A model generated the notes under the pieces. That model saw only the letters and a list, made by a program, of their open reading frames with translations. It was not told where the DNA came from and searched no databases. The position numbers and the translations under genes are program-made. Shown one piece after another: positions 1 through 8,580 of a DNA stretch of 8,580 bases (its first letter is position 1; each line of letters starts with the position of its first letter). Source of the stretch: a virus (Duplodnaviria; Heunggongvirae; Uroviricota; Caudoviricetes); IMG/VR virus record IMGVR_UViG_2547132270_000009; one strand, 5' to 3'.

Positions 1-153
1 CGCCGTTGTCATGAATGCGCTTATCAGTTCAGGATGTGCTTTCGCGTATCCTTCTCCCGCGTTGCGATCGATGATTTTTATCGCCACTCTCAGCCAGTGT
101 TCTGTCAAATCAAGGGCGTGAGATTGTGGTTTTTTTTCGTGCTTCGTTGTCAC
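1..153 (-). CDS. hypothetical protein, 5' portion only (gene runs off the left edge of the window)
   Basis: Minus-strand frame opens with GTG at 153, preceded by a GAGGT Shine-Dalgarno 7 nt upstream, and stays open to position 1 (about 51 codons: VTTKHEKKPQSHALDLTEHWLRVAIKIIDRNAGEGYAKAHPELISAFMTTA). Composition is protein-like. No family recognised; start codon choice is uncertain. Confidence 0.3.
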   Translation of the reverse strand, partial: MTTKHEKKPQSHALDLTEHWLRVAIKIIDRNAGEGYAKAHPELISAFMTTA

Positions 154-204
154 GGGCTTTACCTCACAGCAATAAAATAAAATTTTTGCATTTTAACCCT
201 TCAC

Positions 205-426
205 CTGTTCACCTTTTGAGATTTTCCCTTTTTATTCATGATGTTAAGGGGTGAACAGTTTCACAAAAACTATTCACCAACTGTTCACCACTGTTCACCC
301 TTAAGCTCAATAAACAATCAAAAAGGTGAACAGTGAATAGTTTGGTGAACAGTTCATAAATAACTGTTCACCCTATAATATACTGATATAAAAGACATTT
401 ATGATAGGGTGAACAGTGGTGAACAG
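205..426. repeat. iteron array, putative origin of replication of the element (nine 9-bp GGTGAACAG/CTGTTCACC repeats around an AT-rich tract)
   Basis: Exact 9-mers seen directly: forward GGTGAACAG at 250-258, 325-333, 344-352, 408-416, 418-426; reverse CTGTTCACC at 205-213, 281-289, 291-299, 364-372; degenerate copies at 273-279 and 334-340. An AT-rich block sits at 373-405. The array lies immediately 3' of the helicase gene. The core TGTTCACC matches, as far as I recall, the P4 type I iteron bound by the alpha protein. Confidence 0.75.
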
Positions 427-439
427 TTATTCCATAAGT

Positions 440-2245
440 TTAATTTTTTCCATCGTCATTTGTGACCGATGCACATGATGGCATCCAGTCTTCTGAATCC
501 TCTGTAAGGGTCACATTTGAACGCAAACCGTGCTTCGTTTTCCGTTTCATATACTCCCTGCCATATTCCGCCATTGCCCCCGGCATATCTTTACCGAAGC
601 GCGTCAGTGTTACAGGTTTACCGAATCCGTGTGCCCTCATATATGCCAGATAGGCGTGATAAAGATACCTGCGCGGACTGAACGGAATAATTTCGGCATT
701 ACCCACTAACAGACCATCACACATTACCGACGACATGAGATAGCCGCAGAAGTCCACCAGCGAATCGCCCTCGCGTTTTATCACCAGTGCTTCTTCTGAT
801 TTCTGCTGCTCATACAGCAGGCGTTTAGCTTCGTCCTGGTCAGAAAAACGAGTAAGCAGGTGGCGAATCACAACCGCCAGCTCTCCTTCTATTTTTTCTG
901 CCAGCATGGGGTCGCGTTCGTTTTCCGGTACAACCTCCGAAAAATTGAATATCACCCGACGACGTGAGATCCCCCCGCTGCGGTCACTGAATGACATGGC
1001 GTTATTGTTCACCGCCAGCACGACCGCCTGAATGCGTGTTGAGTAGGGGGCTTTATGCTTCGGGTCGATTGCCACCTTGTCACCGCCTGTAATGGCCTTA
1101 ATTCCTGCGCCATCACCAGCGTAGCGGGTCATATCCGGCATGATAATCAGCGAAAATCCAACCACTAACGCGCGTTCCCTGGCATCTTCCAGCGCCTTCA
1201 TGCTTGCCGATACCGTGTTGGCCTTACCCGCCAGCATGGTGCAAATCTCCGCCATTACGCTTTTACCGCTTCCACCCGGCCCCGTTACCTCAAGAAATAA
1301 CTGCCAGTCGTATCGGTTCGCCAGCACCATGAATAACGCCGCCAGTACGCGATCCGCTTTACGGTCATTCTCAGCCACCGAACGGCGCAACCATTTCCAG
1401 AAATTCGGCGCATGCGTTGCCAGCGTTTCCCCCTCTGCTGGCGGGCTGAACGGTAATTCACTGGCAATTAACAGCCAGTCGTTTTTGTCATGCTCCCGAA
1501 AATCGCCTGTCCGGGTATCAAAAACACCGTTACTGAATCCAATCAGGTTACGGGCGGTATTCCCCATTACGGGCAAACTTAACTTCATTGTATCGACCGC
1601 CGATTTGATGGCGTTCTGCGAATAACTGATCTCCGCATCAATAAAAATCTGCGCCATAGCCCGCTGTAACTCTTTATCCTGTACCGGCTCCCATACAACG
1701 CCGTTGTAGTGGTGAACGGTGTCAGAGTCCGCATTGATTGCCAGTTCACCGCCATAACGTGCCAGGAGAACTTCGCCGCGCTGGCTTGCTCCCATCTGGT
1801 TAAGCGCCAGTGGTGCGGCGCTGTCTTCTGTTTTTTTCTTAACAGGAAGCTGAATAACCAGACCATCAGAAAGATTCTGGCGCTCACGCTCCAGATATTC
1901 GTGCCAGTTCTCCCGCTTCTGGCTGTGCATTCCCTCAGGGTAATAATTCGCATCCCGTACACCTGCCACCGCCAGCTTTTGCCCGATGGCATTAATATTT
2001 GACGGCTTGATGTGGCCTGCCTTGTACAGCCGGACACAATAGCGACCATCGTCGATAATTTTCAGGCCTGCCAGTTCGTCAAGCTGGCTGTCTCCCAGCC
2101 ATACAGGCGGAACATTGTCGCCAGCAAGTCGCCCGTCCTGCTCCTGCCATTGTTTCGCGTGCGCCCAGGCATCACTACCCGCAAAAATAATGACTTCGGT
2201 CATTTTGTCGTGCGGCTGTTTTTTCAGATTCGGTGCCAGTTTCAT
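440..2245 (-). CDS. replication protein, SF3-family helicase / primase-like (P4 alpha-like or PICI Pri-Rep-like), 601 aa
   Basis: 601-aa ORF with AGGGG Shine-Dalgarno 6 nt before the ATG at 2245. Walker A VTGPGGSGKS, Walker B-like SLIIMPDM, SF3 motif C VVLAVNNN and an arginine finger region SRRRVIFNF are all visible in the translation. Adjacent iteron array fits an initiator and its origin. Confidence 0.85.
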   Translation of the reverse strand: MKLAPNLKKQPHDKMTEVIIFAGSDAWAHAKQWQEQDGRLAGDNVPPVWLGDSQLDELAGLKIIDDGRYCVRLYKAGHIKPSNINAIGQKLAVAGVRDANYYPEGMHSQKRENWHEYLERERQNLSDGLVIQLPVKKKTEDSAAPLALNQMGASQRGEVLLARYGGELAINADSDTVHHYNGVVWEPVQDKELQRAMAQIFIDAEISYSQNAIKSAVDTMKLSLPVMGNTARNLIGFSNGVFDTRTGDFREHDKNDWLLIASELPFSPPAEGETLATHAPNFWKWLRRSVAENDRKADRVLAALFMVLANRYDWQLFLEVTGPGGSGKSVMAEICTMLAGKANTVSASMKALEDARERALVVGFSLIIMPDMTRYAGDGAGIKAITGGDKVAIDPKHKAPYSTRIQAVVLAVNNNAMSFSDRSGGISRRRVIFNFSEVVPENERDPMLAEKIEGELAVVIRHLLTRFSDQDEAKRLLYEQQKSEEALVIKREGDSLVDFCGYLMSSVMCDGLLVGNAEIIPFSPRRYLYHAYLAYMRAHGFGKPVTLTRFGKDMPGAMAEYGREYMKRKTKHGLRSNVTLTEDSEDWMPSCASVTNDDGKN

Positions 2246-2541
2246 TTTTTGCCCCTGAATGCGTTAATCATGCTTTTCATTTTCTGAATATTTGCCCGTG
2301 CCTTTGCGTTGCTGGTGGGCTGTTTGCGTGGTGTGGCCTGTATCAGTGAAAAATCACGCCGGAACTGATAAACAGGCATCACGCAGTCGTAGCCGTACCC
2401 ATCACGGCGGTAAGTAACGCACCGTCCGGCAATACTTTTAATCGTTACCGTGCCACCGTAGTTATCCCGGAAAATATCGCCGGGGCGGATTTCAGGCCGA
2501 GCGGGGCCGCTGGCAGTAAAGCCAGAATTTTTCTTTTTCAT
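2242..2541 (-). CDS. hypothetical small protein (99 aa), translationally coupled to the helicase gene
   Basis: ATG at 2541; its stop overlaps the helicase start as ATGA (2242-2245). Basic C-terminus. Fourth of five small genes in the operon. No family recognised. Confidence 0.55.
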   Translation of the reverse strand: MKKKNSGFTASGPARPEIRPGDIFRDNYGGTVTIKSIAGRCVTYRRDGYGYDCVMPVYQFRRDFSLIQATPRKQPTSNAKARANIQKMKSMINAFRGKK

Positions 2542-2545
2542 GGTT

Positions 2546-2746
2546 TTATTTTCCTGTCAGTGATTCCGGTTTTATTCCGGCGCGAATACAGGCTTCAGAA
2601 AAAAAAGCCAGAGAACCAACAACCTCATCATTTCTCAGTCGGCATTGTGATTTCACTTTCCCTTTATCCAGGTAAACCAGTACGCGTCCGGTGAAATCAT
2701 CTGGCACATTAAGCACTACGGGTACATGCGCTTCATGATTATGCAT
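2546..2746 (-). CDS. hypothetical small protein (66 aa)
   Basis: ATG at 2746 preceded by a GGAGGA Shine-Dalgarno; the start overlaps the upstream gene's stop by 8 nt (ATGCATAA). Ends 4 nt before the next start. Confidence 0.5.
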   Translation of the reverse strand: MHNHEAHVPVVLNVPDDFTGRVLVYLDKGKVKSQCRLRNDEVVGSLAFFSEACIRAGIKPESLTGK

Positions 2747-2972
2747 GGCTTACATCCTCCGTGAATTTTCTTCTGTAACGCGTCTCTGCCACATATTCCG
2801 CATAGTCCGACGCAATACTAAGAATCATTTCACCCTCTGACTTGTAGCCACTGGTATTGATAAGAAAATATGCAGCTTTCATCATGTCAGCAACGCTCAA
2901 CAATGCGCCCGCTGCATCTTCCGGTGCGCCATCAAATTCCCGTTTCAGGGAATTAAAACGATCATCACGCAT
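2739..2972 (-). CDS. hypothetical small protein (77 aa); may be the downstream half of a frameshifted larger gene
   Basis: ATG at 2972 lies 2 nt downstream of a G9 run (coding-strand G, plus-strand C at 2975-2983) that could serve as a Shine-Dalgarno. Acidic, helical-looking protein. Confidence 0.5.
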   Translation of the reverse strand: MRDDRFNSLKREFDGAPEDAAGALLSVADMMKAAYFLINTSGYKSEGEMILSIASDYAEYVAETRYRRKFTEDVSHA

Positions 2973-3205
2973 AACCCCCCCCCATTTTCACAATCAGCAA
3001 TCAGGATAGCCCTGGCCTCATTCAGTGCCATATCAGCGGTAAGCTGTGCGTAAGCCAGCGAATGCGGGATTATCGCCCCTGTATATTCCGTCTCTCTGGT
3101 AATGTGTTTTTCTGCGGTTGCTGCCGTGCATGAAATATCAATCAGCGCGTGCATCAGCGTTTTGATGGCTTCGGCGGCTGCGCCCGGACGGGTGTTATTG
3201 CACAT
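2945..3205 (-). CDS. hypothetical small protein (86 aa as read); reads through the G9 tract and stops shortly after
   Basis: ATG at 3205 with AGGGGGTG Shine-Dalgarno; overlaps the Icd-like stop by 8 nt (ATGTGCAATAA). Ends CENGGGLCVMIVLIP. The first ATG of the raw ORF (3247) is rejected because it overlaps the Icd-like gene. Confidence 0.45.
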   Translation of the reverse strand: MCNNTRPGAAAEAIKTLMHALIDISCTAATAEKHITRETEYTGAIIPHSLAYAQLTADMALNEARAILIADCENGGGLCVMIVLIP

Positions 3206-3395
3206 GATGCACCCCCTGACGAATACGGGCGGCGAATACAGCGACACAACCGGACGGGCAACGGTTACGCGCTTCGCGTTCTGTCCAGGCGGTCACGTGG
3301 ATAATTTGAGAATCTCCGGCACTCAGTGCCAGAAAACGCCACACAAAGGCGGTTTGTGTGTGCGCTAGTCGTGGGGTATGCTGTCTTACAGCCAT
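3195..3395 (-). CDS. Icd-like small protein (P4 kil/icd-type host cell division inhibitor family), 66 aa
   Basis: ATG at 3395 with GAGGTAA Shine-Dalgarno 5 nt upstream. Translation MAVRQHTPRLAHTQTAFVWRFLALSAGDSQIIHVTAWTEREARNRCPSGCVAVFAARIRQGVHHVQ fits the F-W-R-F ... EREAR ... AARI pattern I recall for Icd-like proteins of P4-like elements. First gene of the minus-strand operon. Confidence 0.6.
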   Translation of the reverse strand: MAVRQHTPRLAHTQTAFVWRFLALSAGDSQIIHVTAWTEREARNRCPSGCVAVFAARIRQGVHHVQ

Positions 3396-3496
3396 AATCG
3401 TTACCTCATTTAACGGTTTGGTTAGAAGCCCCGTTACTGCTCCAACAGTGCGGGGCTTCGTCGTTTCAATTGCTGAATTGCATGTATCAGCCCTTG

Positions 3497-3550
3497 TGGT
3501 ATTCAGATTACATTTTGGTGAATACCAGTTCAAGTCTTTTTTGGTATTCA
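3497..3550. promoter_or_regulatory. divergent promoter/operator region: three TGGTATTCA sites and a candidate sigma70 promoter for the minus-strand operon
   Basis: TGGTATTCA at 3497-3505 (direct), 3519-3527 (inverted) and 3542-3550 (direct); the first two form an inverted repeat with a 13-bp spacer. On the minus strand, -35 TTGAAC (plus 3528-3533), 17-bp spacer, -10 TAATCT (plus 3505-3510) overlap these sites. Confidence 0.4.
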
Positions 3551-3594
3551 CTTTTGTATTACACTGCATCCCGTTATTAATCGGAGGTGCAAAC

Positions 3595-3900
3595 ATGTCC
3601 ACGAGTTCTGTTAACAATAAGTCACAGCAACTGAATGCCAGATTTCCACATGAAGTAGTGAGTGGCATTGAGGCATCCCTACAGCCTGGGGAAACTAAAG
3701 CGAATTTTATAGTTACGGCTGTACGCGGTGAAATCGCCCGCCGCCAAGCAGAAGGAAGAGGAGAAAATCCCCTGGTTTCTTCGCTCGATGCACTGGCGCA
3801 GGTGGAAAAAATCGGTGTCAAAGCAGCCGAGGAGATCGGGCAACTCGTCACCGTCGCGCGTGAAGAACTCCAGCGCCGCAAGGCCAAAGAACAGGAGTAG
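3595..3900 (+). CDS. ribbon-helix-helix DNA-binding protein, YlcI/YnfO (DUF3950)-like; candidate regulator of the element
   Basis: ATG at 3595 with GGAGGTG Shine-Dalgarno; 101 aa. N-terminal LNARFPHEVVSGIEASL...KANFIVTAVRGEIARR fits the RFP...NF...RR pattern of YlcI/YnfO-type proteins; charged helical C-terminus. It is the only + strand gene inside the element, divergent from the operon. Confidence 0.7.
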   Translation: MSTSSVNNKSQQLNARFPHEVVSGIEASLQPGETKANFIVTAVRGEIARRQAEGRGENPLVSSLDALAQVEKIGVKAAEEIGQLVTVAREELQRRKAKEQE

Positions 3901-4394
3901 TTGATCAGCACCGGGCGCCCAGAAAAAATCGTATCAGTCGCGCCACCAGCAAAATTTTTTGCTTTCCGGACAGCGTGGCCAACGACATTTTGCAGCAAAA
4001 TATTCTGCATTTCTGGCGTGCTGTAGTAACGGTGATCAGCGCCTTCACATTGAACGAACTTGTCGCTAAAATTCACCCATATAGCAAACATCGCGGTGCT
4101 GTAGGTAATTCGTTCACAAAGGCGCTCCGGCAACGGGGCGCTTTTTGTTTTTATTAGTTTGTAGAAACCTGACTCAGAGATAATGCTCATATTCTGATTG
4201 CCGTCAGGGGTGTAAGTTAAATTTACTCCCTTTTTATCATCAAACATCTGCAACGCTCTGGCGTTAACAATATTGGTTTCACTCCCGCCAGTAAGGCCGG
4301 AAATAACCGGAATAATTTCGGCAAAATTTTGCAGATTCTGTTTTTCAGGACGAACGAAGCCCCGCCCTTGTTCGGGAGAATATCCAGTATTCAT
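3900..4394 (-). CDS. Bro-N-like (antirepressor-type) protein; 3' end unresolved, possibly a pseudogene
   Basis: ATG at 4394. The first 120 or so residues contain Bro-N-like blocks (FDDKKGV...NMSIISESGFYKLIKTKSAPLPERL). The frame has no stop until 3195, running antisense through the RHH gene and into the Icd-like gene, so the real C-terminus cannot be set from sequence; 3900 is an approximate boundary. Both other minus frames hit stops near 3903-3930. Confidence 0.35.
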
Positions 4395-4446
4395 GGTTAG
4401 ATCTCTGTATTAGTGGATGGGTGGCGGCTGTGTGCCGCCAGCCTGA

Positions 4447-4635
4447 TTAGTGAACTGCCTCGCAGCTTTCCTTCCATGCCAGAACTTCGGATAAAGACCA
4501 GCCAACGGAACGACCGCCGAGCTTACGCCGTGATGGGAATTGTCCGGTTTTTTCCAGGCGGTACCGACATGAACGGCTCAGGCCTGTAAGTTGCTGACAT
4601 TCTTTTTCACGTATAAAGCGATCTGTGCTTAACAC
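4447..4635 (-). CDS. alpA: AlpA-family phage regulatory protein (excisionase/activator-like), 62 aa
   Basis: GTG at 4635 preceded by an AGGGGGA Shine-Dalgarno. Translation ...ECQQLTGLSRSCRYRLEKTGQFPSRRKLGGRSVGWSLSEVLAWKE fits the AlpA helix-turn-helix pattern. Upstream in-frame ATGs (up to 4803) lack a ribosome-binding site. Confidence 0.8.
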   Translation of the reverse strand: MLSTDRFIREKECQQLTGLSRSCRYRLEKTGQFPSRRKLGGRSVGWSLSEVLAWKESCEAVH

Positions 4636-4930
4636 AATTCCCCCTTTGATATTTCTTAAAGAGTTATTTGGTGTCCTATTGTGTTGTGGTGCGTCGGATT
4701 GTGTCAGGGTGTTTATGGAATGGCAAACACTGGCGGCGGTCATTTTACAGAAGTGTGGTAATGAGAATAAAAACTCTTTTAATTCATTGTGGTGCAAAGG
4801 CATAAAATTCTGTTTTTACGCCTTTTTTACATGTTTTTAAGAGTGATTCGCCAATGTACAAAAAGCCAGTAAAACGACTGAAAATCAACTTTTTAGGGTG
4901 TCAGTCAGATGTTAATCAAGTTTGTTCCAG

Positions 4931-4980
4931 ATTGTTCGCCGTTGTTCGTCGTGGTGTCTCGTTGTTTCACGTTGTGTCAG
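4931..4980. repeat. five tandem degenerate 10-bp repeats (consensus GTTGTTCGYC) just downstream of the integrase stop
   Basis: Consecutive 10-mers attgttcgcc / gttgttcgtc / gtggtgtctc / gttgtttcac / gttgtgtcag at 4931-4980, one helical turn apart. On the minus strand they read as GAACAA-type motifs. Related GTGTCAG motifs at 4701-4707 and 4897-4903. Confidence 0.5.
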
Positions 4981-5002
4981 TTCTAAAAAATCGCAAAAAA
5001 AA

Positions 5003-6250
5003 TTATATTTCTCTGGCTATTGGCAGTGTGGTTACGTTTTTGTGAGTACCCGCCAGTATCTCTAACCGCTCTGTCCACATGTCCAGCGCATTACGTTTCG
5101 CATCGAGATAACGGGAGTGGTTATAGACTCGCTGCATCCCTGGCATCTGGTGAGCGGTGAGTTGTTCGACAATATGCGGATCCACGCCTAAATCGTTCAG
5201 CATCGTGGTAAACGTGCGCCGTATATCGTGTAGTGACCAGTGCGGATGGTTTAATTTTTTGTGCATGAATCTGCCGTATTGCGACACACTGGCTTCCTGT
5301 TTCAGTTCCCCGAGTAATAGCCCTGTGTGTCTGTTCTGCTCCACCAGCTGCGTGACGAACGGTAAAATGCTTTCCGGTATTGGCCTGAATATGGCGACCT
5401 TCGTTTTGCTGTGCTCTTTCGGTACTGTCCAGAGCATTTCCTTAAAATCCCACTCCCTGATCTCCGATAATCTCAGTTCTCCGGTTCGGCAGCCGAACAC
5501 AATCAGGAGGCGGATTAGTGCGCTGTAGTAGGGCGGGAATATTTTTTTATCCAGCGCCTGTAATAATTCGCCAAGTTCTTTGTTGCTCAGCACGCGTTCG
5601 CTTATGCCTGGTTTTTTGCCAACGTCCACCACGTTAAGATCATCCAGAACGTTACTGACTGCGTAGCGACGTTTACGGCAGAACTTAAGCGCCTGTTTAC
5701 ACGCCTGCATCATGTGACCAGACGTTACAGGGGATTTTTTGCGTATCCGGTCAAAACAGGCCAGCCAGTGACGTAACTCGCATTTATCCAGTGGCATATT
5801 GCCAATATGCTGTATGACGTGATTATTCAGGCGGCTTTTCAGGCATACGTAATCGACACGGTTTTCCTTTACGTGCATTTCCAGCCAGTAGCTGATCGCA
5901 TCACCCACCGTTACCGGCTTTAGTGCTTCCTGTATGGAGTAATTAAGCTCATGGCGTGGATTTTTTCCTTCTGCCAGCCATGCGCGACACTGTGCCGCTT
6001 TTTCCCTGGCTGCTTTCAGGCTCAGATCAGGATAATTTCCCAGCTTCAGGCGTTCCGGTGATACCTGGCGTCCAGCTCCTGCCCTGTAGGTGAAATACCA
6101 GGTTAACAAGCCGCTGGTGGAATGCCTGACGCTCAGGTTTCCACCGTCATTAAGAAATGTGGTTTTTGGGGCTGGTGTGCCGTTGATTTTTCTTAGCTGT
6201 GTATCGCTCAGTTTGTTAAGTGCTCTGCTCATAATTTTGAATCCGGTCAT
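5003..6250 (-). CDS. int: tyrosine-type site-specific integrase, P4-like family
   Basis: About 415 aa. N-terminal arm-binding domain (DGGNLSVRHSTSGLLTWYFTYRAG...LGNYPDLSLKAAREKA) resembles P4-type integrases; C-terminal catalytic motifs HDIRRTF and YNHSRYLDAKR (tyrosine nucleophile). Start is ATG at 6250 or GTG at 6253; no strong Shine-Dalgarno for either. Confidence 0.93.
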   Translation of the reverse strand: MTGFKIMSRALNKLSDTQLRKINGTPAPKTTFLNDGGNLSVRHSTSGLLTWYFTYRAGAGRQVSPERLKLGNYPDLSLKAAREKAAQCRAWLAEGKNPRHELNYSIQEALKPVTVGDAISYWLEMHVKENRVDYVCLKSRLNNHVIQHIGNMPLDKCELRHWLACFDRIRKKSPVTSGHMMQACKQALKFCRKRRYAVSNVLDDLNVVDVGKKPGISERVLSNKELGELLQALDKKIFPPYYSALIRLLIVFGCRTGELRLSEIREWDFKEMLWTVPKEHSKTKVAIFRPIPESILPFVTQLVEQNRHTGLLLGELKQEASVSQYGRFMHKKLNHPHWSLHDIRRTFTTMLNDLGVDPHIVEQLTAHQMPGMQRVYNHSRYLDAKRNALDMWTERLEILAGTHKNVTTLPIAREI

Positions 6251-6254
6251 CACA

Positions 6255-6368
6255 ATTAACTACACCATTAACTACACCGATCATTGCACAAGGGGGTACA
6301 ACGTGGAACAAGTTGGAACAAGAAAATTGCAATGAGCTTAAAAATCAAAAACATAATGAACAACGTGG
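6255..6368. repeat. direct repeats between the integrase start and the junction; candidate arm-type recombinase binding sites
   Basis: ATTAACTACACC twice in tandem (6255-6266, 6267-6278); TGGAACAAG twice at 10-bp spacing (6304-6312, 6314-6322); ACAACGTGG twice (6298-6306, 6360-6368). Confidence 0.45.
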
Positions 6369-6397
6369 CACATTATGAAACAGCAAAAAACACTAAT

Positions 6398-6577
6398 TTA
6401 TAAAAATCCGCTATTGATAATGGCGCTGCGTACGCGATCACGCGCTTCCTTTACTGTCGTTTCTGGTAAGCCCACCATTGTTAATCCGGGTAGACCTTTG
6501 CTGATATGTACCTCAACAGTGATCGGCGGAGCATTTACTCCCAGAGCTGCGCGAGTATGAACAATTGATAGTGACAT
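6398..6577 (-). pseudogene. yifB: yifB/comM (Mg-chelatase-like AAA+ ATPase) 5' fragment, truncated after about 59 codons by the inserted element
   Basis: ATG at 6577 with GGAGGA Shine-Dalgarno. Translation MSLSIVHTRAALGVNAPPITVEVHISKGLPGLTMVGLPETTVKEARDRVRSAIINSG matches the YifB/ComM N-terminus from memory, then ends FL-stop at 6398-6400 where the full-length protein (about 500 aa) should continue. The junction is estimated at about 6400-6412. Confidence 0.8.
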
Positions 6578-6849
6578 AAGTCCTCCTTGAGTCACCATTA
6601 TGAACACAATCATTCGCTGCTGTAGCCAGCAAAATTACGACTTTTAGCGGCTGATTCCTGTTTATTTTTGCAATCGATATTGAGTTGTATTGGTGATGGA
6701 ATGATGCTCGCAAAAATGTTGCGGACAAATATTGAGCTGTTTTGTGGAGAACAAGAAACATACGGAAATTGAATTTTTTTCACTCTTCTTTTTTTATATA
6801 AAAAACAATGATCTCTATCGAAATTATTATGTGCATCATAAAAATCGGC

Positions 6850-6895
6850 CAAAAAATATCTTGTGTTATTCGCAAAATCTATGGTACCTCTTTAG
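6850..6895 (+). promoter_or_regulatory. ilvL-ilvG operon promoter region
   Basis: Candidate -35 TTGTGT (6861-6866) and -10-like TATGGT (6880-6885) 40-70 bp upstream of ilvL, but the spacing between them is only about 13 bp, so exact element assignment is uncertain. AT-rich upstream sequence (6760-6850) fits UP/IHF-type elements. Confidence 0.4.
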
Positions 6896-6929
6896 ACATT
6901 CCTTCGAACAAGATGCAAGAAAAGACAAA

Positions 6930-7028
6930 ATGACAGCCCTTCTACGAGTGATTAGCCTGGTCGTGATTAGCGTGGTGGTGATTATTATCCCACCGTGCGG
7001 GGCTGCACTTGGACGAGGAAAGGCTTAG
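6930..7028 (+). CDS. ilvL: ilvGMEDA operon leader peptide (32 aa)
   Basis: Translation MTALLRVISLVVISVVVIIIPPCGAALGRGKA, rich in Ile/Val/Leu control codons, recognised as the ilvL leader peptide; TAG stop at 7026-7028. Confidence 0.95.
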   Translation: MTALLRVISLVVISVVVIIIPPCGAALGRGKA

Positions 7029-7050
7029 AGATCAAGCCTTAACGAACTAA

Positions 7051-7085
7051 GACCCCCGCACCGAAAGGTCCGGGGGTTTTTTTTG
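7051..7085 (+). terminator. ilv attenuator, rho-independent terminator
   Basis: GC-rich stem ACCCCCG (7052-7058) pairing with CGGGGGT (7071-7077) around a GAAA loop, followed by a T-run (7077-7084), between ilvL and ilvX/ilvG. Confidence 0.9.
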
Positions 7086-7114
7086 ACCTTAAAAACATAA
7101 CCGAGGAGCAGGCA

Positions 7115-7165
7115 ATGAATAACAGCACAAAATTCTGTTTCTCAAGATTCAGGACGGGGAACTAA
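7115..7165 (+). CDS. ilvX: small protein IlvX (16 aa)
   Basis: ATG at 7115 after GAGGAGCAGG; translation [16 protein letters not shown] then TAA, matching the 16-aa IlvX small protein as I recall it; ends 2 nt before ilvG. Confidence 0.8.
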
Positions 7166-7167
7166 CT

Positions 7168-8580
7168 ATGAATGGCGCACAGTGGGTGGTACATGCGTTG
7201 CGGGCACAGGATGTGAACACCGTTTTCGGTTATCCGGGAGGCGCAATTATGCCGGTTTACGATGCATTGTATGACGGCGGCGTGGAACACTTGCTGTGCC
7301 GACATGAGCAGGGCGCGGCAATGGCGGCAATTGGCTATGCCCGTGCTACCGGCAAAACCGGCGTATGTATCGCCACGTCTGGTCCGGGTGCAACCAACCT
7401 GATAACCGGGCTTGCGGACGCGCTGTTAGATTCCATCCCTGTCGTTGCCATCACCGGTCAGGTGTCCGCACCGTTCATCGGCACCGACGCATTTCAGGAA
7501 GTGGATGTCCTGGGATTGTCATTAGCCTGTACCAAACACAGCTTCCTGGTACAGTCGCTGGAAGAGTTGCCACGCATCATGGCTGAAGCATTCGACGTTG
7601 CCCGCTCAGGCCGTCCTGGTCCGGTTCTGGTCGATATCCCAAAAGATATCCAGTTAGCCATCGGCGATCTGGAACCGTGGTTCACCACCGTTGAAAACGA
7701 AGTAACTTTTCCACATGCCGAAGTCGAGCAAGCGCGCCAGATGCTGGCAAAAGCGCAAAAACCGATGCTGTATGTTGGCGGCGGCGTAGGTATGGCACAG
7801 GCAGTTCCGGCTTTGCGTGAATTTCTCGCTGCCACAAAAATGCCTGCCACCTGCACGCTGAAAGGGCTGGGCGCAGTTGAAGCGGATTATCCGTACTATC
7901 TGGGGATGCTTGGGATGCACGGCACCAAAGCGGCGAACTTTGCGGTGCAGGAATGTGACCTGCTGATCGCTGTGGGCGCACGTTTTGATGACCGGGTAAC
8001 CGGCAAACTAAACACCTTCGCACCGCATGCCAGCGTTATCCATATGGATATCGACCCGGCAGAAATGAACAAGCTGCGTCAGGCGCATGTGGCATTACTG
8101 GGTGATTTAAATGCTCTGTTACCGGCATTACAGCAGCCGTTAAATATCAATGACTGGCAGCAGCACTGCGCGCAGCTGTGTAGTGAACATGCCTGGCGTT
8201 ACGACCATCCCGGAGACGCTATCTATGCGCCGTTGTTGTTAAAACAACTGTCGGATCGTAAACCTGCGGATTGCGTTGTGACCACAGATGTGGGGCAGCA
8301 CCAGATGTGGGCCGCGCAGCACATCGCCCACACTCGCCCGGAAAATTTCATCACTTCAAGCGGCTTAGGCACTATGGGTTTTGGTTTACCGGCGGCGGTT
8401 GGCGCACAAGTCGCACGACCGAACGATACCGTCGTTTGTATCTCTGGTGACGGCTCTTTCATGATGAATGTGCAAGAGCTGGGCACCGTAAAACGCAAGC
8501 AGTTACCGTTGAAAATCGTCTTACTCGATAACCAACGGTTAGGGATGGTTCGACAATGGCAGCAACTGTTTTTCCTGGAA
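7168..8580 (+). CDS. ilvG: acetolactate synthase II (AHAS II) large subunit, N-terminal 471 codons; continues past the window
   Basis: Translation [81 protein letters not shown]... is a thiamine-diphosphate enzyme recognised as IlvG. Frame is open from 7168 to the window end with no internal stop. Confidence 0.96.

Follow-up and report, generated by a model that had tools for sequence, protein, structure and literature searches.

The window analysed here, meaning the whole stretch of 8,580 nucleotides, is the entire contig AEJY01000187.1 (assembly GCA_000208505.2). Positions 1–6405 are foreign DNA. Positions 6406–8580 are chromosomal, beginning with 172 nt from the 5′ end of yifB (minus strand) and continuing at 6578–8580 (plus strand) through the yifB–ilvL intergenic region, ilvL (6930–7028) and ilvX (7115–7165) into the 5′ part of ilvG (7168–8580). 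The chromosomal part is ~93% identical to E. coli, which indicates that the host belongs to an Escherichia lineage outside E. coli proper. The opposite end of the contig lies in the replication origin of the foreign element, short of the far junction.

The border between host and island was placed at 6405/6406 by alignment with two loci, L002 (E. coli, uninterrupted) and L001 (interrupted). Homology to the uninterrupted E. coli yifB starts exactly at 6406, giving an insertion point 172 nt into the coding sequence. What remains of the gene (6398–6577, minus strand) has its ATG at 6577, with GGAGGA at 6581–6586, and encodes 57 residues that are those of E. coli YifB at the protein level; codon 58 is then TTT in place of the native TAT and is followed by TTA and by the stop codon TAA at 6400–6398. 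The initial annotation, which had an island inside the yifB coding sequence beside the ilv operon, is borne out by this break. Its estimate of the insertion depth (~175 bp) was close, and the ribosome binding sequence and start of yifB that it described are present, with 57 native codons and then F-L-stop rather than some 59 codons. Its claim that yifB keeps a promoter fared less well: the native sequence upstream of yifB is retained, and a promoter scan of 6150–6950 found no sigma-70-like site near int or yifB. A terminator scan of the same region gave nothing informative around either gene.

The intact yifB product is 506 aa long, with a ChlI domain at residues 21–142, an AAA+ Mg_chelatase domain at 189–386 and a C-terminal domain at 400–492. 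The insertion cuts ChlI at profile position 38 of 121, leaving positions 1–38 in the truncated product. A natively short yifB was rejected, since the full-length gene encodes 506 aa. Among 5,426 complete E. coli genomes, 5,398 lack bases 6233–6405 and read through the site uninterrupted, as scored by the continuity of a 140-bp probe across it. Thus yifB does not end naturally at this position, nor is the sequence beside it ordinary host DNA, and the original observation stands. The 59-residue ‘magnesium chelatase domain-containing protein’ found in annotation is an artefact of the junction and not a gene. In E. coli N3, a strain without the island (L002, 1653–3172), yifB is annotated as frameshifted, which suggests that the gene is dispensable in E. 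coli.

Gene content and class of the island

The gene nearest the junction encodes a 409-aa tyrosine integrase (5003–6232, minus strand) with Arm-DNA-bind_3, Phage_int_M and Phage_integrase domains. It starts at 6232, in the orientation of yifB, and is the next gene downstream of the truncated one. PF13356 and PF00589 match the protein with 66 and 62 bits, and PF22022 with 23.6 bits, under its cut-off of 27. Candidates for the catalytic Arg, His-x-x-Arg and Tyr residues, in the motifs GCR(249)TGE, H335-D-I-R338 and V-Y370-NHS, were located by eye rather than by alignment to a reference structure. Description of this protein as a P4-family integrase is apt for the domain architecture (arm-binding, central and catalytic), which is all that it shares with P4-type integrases. 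It does not extend to kinship: the NCBIfam model PRK09692 gives 42 bits where its cut-off is 434, so there is no close relationship to the P4/CP4-57 integrases, and the best deposited phage integrase is 49.5% identical, with most at ~30% or less. The yifB core was not found in deposited phages. A scan of species-representative genomes with the integrase returned one locus, in Shigella flexneri, where the reading frame ends after 115 residues.

Beyond int, the island carries genes for an AlpA-family regulator (62 aa, 4447–4635, minus strand, by domain match), a YlcI/YnfO family protein (101 aa, 3595–3900), an Icd-like small protein (66 aa, 3195–3395, minus strand, by family match), a DUF4222 protein (99 aa, 2242–2541, minus strand) and a primase/helicase (pri-rep; 601 aa, 440–2245, minus strand). 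The YlcI/YnfO gene is on the plus strand and all other called genes of the island are on the minus strand. Here, as in all the related islands, the DUF4222 gene immediately precedes the replicase gene. In the primase/helicase, D5_N, DUF5906 and Pox_D5 domains are accompanied by a C-terminal region of the P4 primase type. Just downstream of it is the replication origin (205–426), which contains nine exact copies of the iteron GGTGAACAG in both orientations, where 0.06 would be expected. The contig ends ~200 nt past the iterons, whose repetition may have caused the assembly break, and the only other contig that carries exactly this primase (L006) is 3 kb long.

Two further features lie among the small genes. 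A run of nine C residues at 2975–2983, between the overlapping small ORFs 2739–2972 and 2945–3247, may be a sequencing error or a frameshift. A 399-aa ORF at 3195–4394 (minus strand) overlaps the YlcI/YnfO gene on the opposite strand, and related loci annotate a pseudogene there. It is probably not one gene, being instead the Icd-like gene (3195–3395) joined to an unrelated remnant (3904–4394).

This gene layout is that of the Gram-negative phage-inducible chromosomal islands (PICIs; PMC6092414). The window shares with the E. coli members EcCICFT073 and EcCIEC2733.1 (Fillol-Salom et al. 2018, PMC6092414) the order int, alpA, small genes, pri-rep and ori, the placement of nearly all genes on one strand and a dedicated attachment site outside tRNA genes. 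Induction of EcCICFT073 is under the control of AlpA (PMC6092414). Complete islands at the same junction (L001, L004 and L020) are 15.5 kb long and carry int, alpA, DUF4222, primase and SSB genes, together with genes for an HK97-type capsid, protease, portal, connector, HNH, TerS and TerL. They have a capsid and terminase set and neither tail nor lysis genes, and are thus capsid-forming PICIs (cf-PICIs). The replication module of the window is 99.4% identical to that of L012, a capsid-forming island in yifB whose host has a chromosomal flank 98.5% identical to that of the window, and this likeness makes a capsid-forming PICI likely for the window copy as well. Capsid and packaging genes are carried by L001, L004, L012 and L020 at this junction, whereas the window copy ends at the origin, and the size, cargo and attR core ascribed to it are taken from these relatives. 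The island is a PICI-type satellite, probably of the capsid-forming kind.

Not all islands at yifB have the same cargo; in L010 the place of the HK97-type set is taken by modules for a lambda-type capsid, decoration protein and Nu1. Domains of the psu-delta-sid capsid-hijacking operon of P4-like satellites were not found in the 6.4 kb of the island that the window contains, and islands with the same replication module have genes for capsid, portal and terminase in place of that operon. A P4-like element is unlikely.

The island is a mosaic. Positions 1–2248 are closest to L012 (99.4%, from the same host lineage), which itself carries another integrase subtype than the window, and positions 4098–6405 are closest to an island at a different chromosomal site, abgR-smrA (L003, 99.8%). 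Such a structure implies that integration modules have been swapped between satellite backbones and between species.

Attachment core and candidate arm-type repeats

The attL core, ATCCGCTATTGATAATG (6406–6422), is a 17-bp sequence identical to the host attB that covers yifB codons 52–57 and the first base of codon 58. By this identity, 6406–6422 is read as the host version of the core. At the int side of the three complete relatives, island DNA ending in TTTATAAAA is followed by ATCCGCTATT, by GATAATG and then by host DNA. At their far end, host DNA ending in GGATATTCAT is followed by ATCCGCTATT, by TATAAT(T/C) and then by island DNA. As attR, L001 and L020 have ATCCGCTATTTATAATT and L004 has ATCCGCTATTTATAATC. 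The only stretch common to attL and attR in these islands is ATCCGCTATT (6406–6415 in the window), which places the crossover within those 10 bp. Alignment to an uninterrupted yifB–ilvL region, which had been suggested as a means of finding the core and its duplicate, therefore defines the core well; the duplicated copy is found only in the relatives, where the far-end core is an imperfect repeat of the attL core.

The possibility had also been raised that the far junction recreates an expressed yifB. In the complete relatives it does not recreate an expressed full-length gene. The yifB frame meets stops 3–15 codons upstream of the far junction, and there is no conserved replacement N-terminus. 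In L001 an in-frame ATG (ATG-GTT-TTA) lies three codons before the junction with no visible ribosome binding site, and this ATG is not conserved, there being none at the far junction of L004. In L001 and L004, then, yifB is split and is not rebuilt at the far junction. The flanks are pure host sequence, so that precise excision would restore yifB. In the genome from which the window derives, the far junction is expected to have the 3′ part of yifB, ATCCGCTATT-TATAAT and an arm with two copies of T(T/G)(A/G)ACTACACC, and the island would measure ~10–16 kb.

The attP core is a reconstruction from these junctions rather than an observed sequence. Viral contigs gave no match to the pattern CACTAATTTATAAAA-N10-TATAAT(T) expected of an excised or tandem attP, and the 5,426 E. 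coli genomes gave no full-length match to a synthetic 175-bp attP. A lone metagenome match to the pattern was rejected as unrelated AT-rich DNA. The window copy is presumed to be mobile.

A further capsid-forming island (L019, 16996–32760), which the synthetic attP matched in part, lies inside a prophage beside a truncated terL. The integrase of this island is a different one (38% identity). At the far end, the sequence matches L001 with 99.4% identity and retains, by the old far arm, what is left of a yifB-type core, GTTATAAAC-ATCCTCTATT-TATAATT. The relic and the different integrase together indicate that the integration module was replaced. The relic bears a suggestive resemblance to the attP core; with two mismatches and an ambiguous origin, it was set aside as an example of one.

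Between int and the core lies the island-side arm of attL (6233–6405), which is AT-rich, is highly conserved among islands at the yifB site and presumably contains the int promoter. Two classes of repeat are found in it. The first is a tandem 11-mer, TTAACTACACC, at 6256 and 6268 (6256–6278, plus strand; two copies against 0.10 expected) with a 12-bp period. The second, ACAACGTGG(A/C)ACA, occurs at 6298 and 6360 (6298–6372, plus strand), where the shared sequence ACAACGTGGNACA is present twice against an expectation of 0.01; it is accompanied by two copies of GGAACAAG at 6304–6322, and related islands have one more copy of this class on their far arm. The tandem repeats had been noticed earlier as resembling arm-type sites, and several comparisons strengthen that view. 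The TTAACTACACC pair is also present on the far arm of L001, L003 and L004, in the same orientation, within a ~57-bp block with ACAACGTGGAACA. In L004, L012, L014 and L016, both int-side copies are changed to TGACTACACC and the spacer is changed from AT to AG on both arms, the rest being unchanged; the integrases of these four islands differ from the others mainly in their first 100 residues (36/50 and 43/50 identical, vs 49–50/50 elsewhere), a covariation that is based on two types only. At the same position beside int, a module with an unrelated integrase (38% identity) carries two tandem copies of a repeat of its own, GCAATACACA. Finally, the published ‘att core’ of EcCIDI14, CGGTGTAGTTAATGGTGTAGTTAATT (Fillol-Salom 2018, Table S1), is the reverse complement of the arm repeat at window positions 6254–6279; the EcCIDI14 ‘att core’ would thus appear to be the repeat found on both arms and not the crossover core. 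The presence of the repeats on both arms, their variation with the integrase N-terminus, the analogous repeat and the EcCIDI14 match provide circumstantial support for the tandem repeats as arm-type integrase binding sites.

Recurrence of the yifB site and other insertions in comM

The same attL recurs in 27 of the 5,426 complete genomes of E. coli, and 2,916 blocks in an index of public assemblies contain exactly the truncated protein of 59 residues. All ten of the loci sampled have the ilv operon, a truncated yifB and a 409-aa int gene, followed by varied satellite cargo that includes HK97-type capsid sets, lambda-type capsids with decoration protein and Nu1, and others. Two integrase subtypes and at least two Escherichia lineages are represented. 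This high and varied occupancy argues that the yifB site is genuine, heavily used and common to several satellite backbones. The suspicion that the gene is a recurrent target, and the proposal that a survey would find other islands at the same position, have thus both proved well founded, the islands found having varied PICI and cf-PICI cargo. The junction is real but common in Escherichia, an ordinary event of a known kind.

One occupied locus has an additional feature. Inside a capsid-forming island in yifB (L009), at 18123–20180, lies a second integrase gene whose product is identical to the L019 integrase at 359 of 359 residues. It directly follows a capsid gene whose homology ends at about residue 289 of 381, and the arrangement looks like a satellite nested in a satellite.

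Insertion into a protein-coding gene had been considered unusual for an integrase of the P4 family, on the grounds that these normally target tRNA genes. No tRNA gene is present in the window, and tRNA-linked integration was rejected for that reason. For PICIs of E. coli, attachment sites have been published at ycfD-phoQ, tqsA, yejM-luxR, cspD-clpS, lysR-smrA, yicC-dinD and frmR-thiM (PMC6092414, Table S1); no tRNA gene appears in this list, and one entry, tqsA, is a coding gene, so that a protein-coding target is not unusual for this group and the expectation of a tRNA target does not apply. The gene yifB is not among the eight E. coli attC sites of that table, nor was it found in the satellite literature searched, and it can be added to the catalogue of attachment sites of E. 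coli-type satellites.

The homologous gene comM is, as was pointed out at the start, a known hotspot in other bacteria. Insertions in comM/yifB are documented in Aggregatibacter, Acinetobacter, Mannheimia, Pseudomonas, Francisella and Vibrio, and also for serine-recombinase elements (pipolins). These elements disrupt the same target gene, but differ in recombinase lineage and in position, which is in Mg_chelatase or Lon_C in the cases retrieved. The AbaR islands of Acinetobacter are transposons and are not integrase-borne. The parallel with AbaR-type islands in comM is therefore one of target gene and not of mechanism: no transposase domain was found among the scanned window proteins, and the island, unlike AbaR, has a tyrosine integrase and a 10–17 bp core. 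A resistance or transposon island was rejected, as the domain scan of the window proteins found no such genes. Closer at hand is the Salmonella Typhi prophage ST35, which lies in comM and whose 26-bp identity block, according to the supplement of PMC7192596, starts 3 nt downstream of the island's block. Use of nearly the same position by two unrelated elements suggests that yifB codons 52–67 form a small hotspot.

Taken together, the window very probably holds the attL of a PICI-type satellite that was inserted by its own integrase into a genuine and recurrent attB in yifB, with the site most likely chosen by the core. The tyrosine integrase of the satellite would insert it by site-specific recombination, with the crossover in ATCCGCTATT within yifB codons 52–57. 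The N-terminal arm-binding domain of the integrase probably occupies the TTAACTACACC repeats of both attP arms, with its other domains on the core. With the N-terminal ChlI domain of YifB cut and the gene not rebuilt, yifB would be inactive while the island is resident, as judged from truncation of the domain, and it would regain its function by precise excision.

The recurrence of comM as a target raises the question of whether the disruption itself is useful to the element. Knockout of the ComM homologue might lower the removal of elements by recombination, as has been proposed for comM in transformable bacteria. The repeated disruption of comM by unrelated elements in many Gram-negative species is in keeping with such a benefit, as is the use by the unrelated ST35 of a core 3 nt away, and AbaR islands are reported to gain from comM disruption (PMC11441513). 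We nevertheless consider a benefit of this kind unlikely as the explanation here, as the same integrase equally uses an intergenic site unlinked to competence. In addition, natural transformation is not, to our knowledge, an established trait of Escherichia.

An identical integrase at a second site

The intergenic site is that of L003. Window positions 4098–6405, comprising int, alpA and the arm, are 99.8% identical to this island of E. coli 90-9280, and the two integrases are identical at all 409 residues. L003 sits between smrA and abgR, with attL TCACGATATT-AATAATG and attR TCACGATATT-TATAATT, and the reverse complement of its core is the published att core ACATTATTAATATCGTGA of the lysR-smrA attC (PMC6092414). 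The yifB and abgR-smrA attB sites match at 19 of 26 positions without gaps (TATTCAT...CG.TATT.ATAATG), and differ at four of the ten crossover positions. Among 16 integrases compared, proteins from the two sites are interleaved, with 0–6 residue differences: none between L003 and the window, two between L021 and L001, and six between two proteins that are both from the abgR site. E. coli JP538 has capsid-forming islands at both sites, L020 in yifB and L021 at abgR-smrA, with integrases five residues apart and each island having the core of its own site. Both junctions at each site carry that site's own version of the core. The combination of a site-specific core with an identical integrase suggests that the attP of each element carries the matching core and that homology of this core, and not the protein, sets the target. 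Thus, the site used is most likely to be determined by overlap homology between the core in attP and the target.

The existence of this second site allows a different reading of the yifB junction. The integrase could be specific for abgR-smrA, with yifB an occasional look-alike secondary site and its disruption accidental. The abgR-smrA site is occupied in 68 of the 5,426 genomes against 27 for yifB, a 2.5-fold excess; it is the published attC for the integrase group, the integrase proteins at the two sites are identical and the cores are alike, all of which would fit with off-target insertion, and the authors of TIGER describe an analogous ambiguity for rimO and rhtB. However, use of yifB seems too frequent and too varied for an accident, given 2,916 blocks, many different cargos, and occurrence with two integrase subtypes in at least two lineages of Escherichia. 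All complete examples have the yifB core at both junctions with no heterology, as if attP had been matched to yifB beforehand, and both sites are filled in JP538. An off-target event is therefore quite improbable. Equally improbable is a reversible switch of the ‘regulated gene integrity’ or active lysogeny type, in which the island would silence yifB and regulated excision would restore YifB: a conserved domain is disrupted without restoration (in the relatives L001 and L004), independent integrations recur at one position, the host-identical attL core would give a wild-type sequence on precise excision and yifB is among the candidate regulated-integrity genes of PMC7192596, but the integrase clade is not pure for the site and also uses the intergenic one, the comM cases retrieved from that paper's supplement concern other taxa and other domains (Mg_chelatase, Lon_C), a frameshifted yifB in at least one strain of E. 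coli points to a dispensable gene, and there is no sign here of excision or of its control by a host signal.

Insertion by the satellite's own integrase at a genuine yifB attB remains the preferred reading, and it leads to a further, more tentative one. The same integrase protein may serve both yifB and abgR-smrA, with the 10-bp attP core alone deciding between them; this is a possibility that we think worth stating, though we would not yet favour it. It has a precedent in the secondary sites of lambda and the saf variants, where a single integrase recombines at sites with different crossover sequences, selected by overlap homology between attP and attB. The present case differs in that both sites are common in nature and each is occupied by elements with perfectly matching junctions.

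Roughly 0.5% of complete E. coli genomes, and assemblies numbering in the thousands, have the ComM homologue split in this way. If the core alone decides the site, satellites would be able to retarget by a few base changes in attP with the protein unchanged, providing a natural integration system that is easily reprogrammed. The movement of nearly identical integration modules from one Escherichia species to another, and between backbones of the PICI and cf-PICI types, would be accounted for as well. Use of the two sites thus provides a testable case of targeting by core homology, with a bearing on the spread of satellites across species and on the design of integrases for genome engineering.
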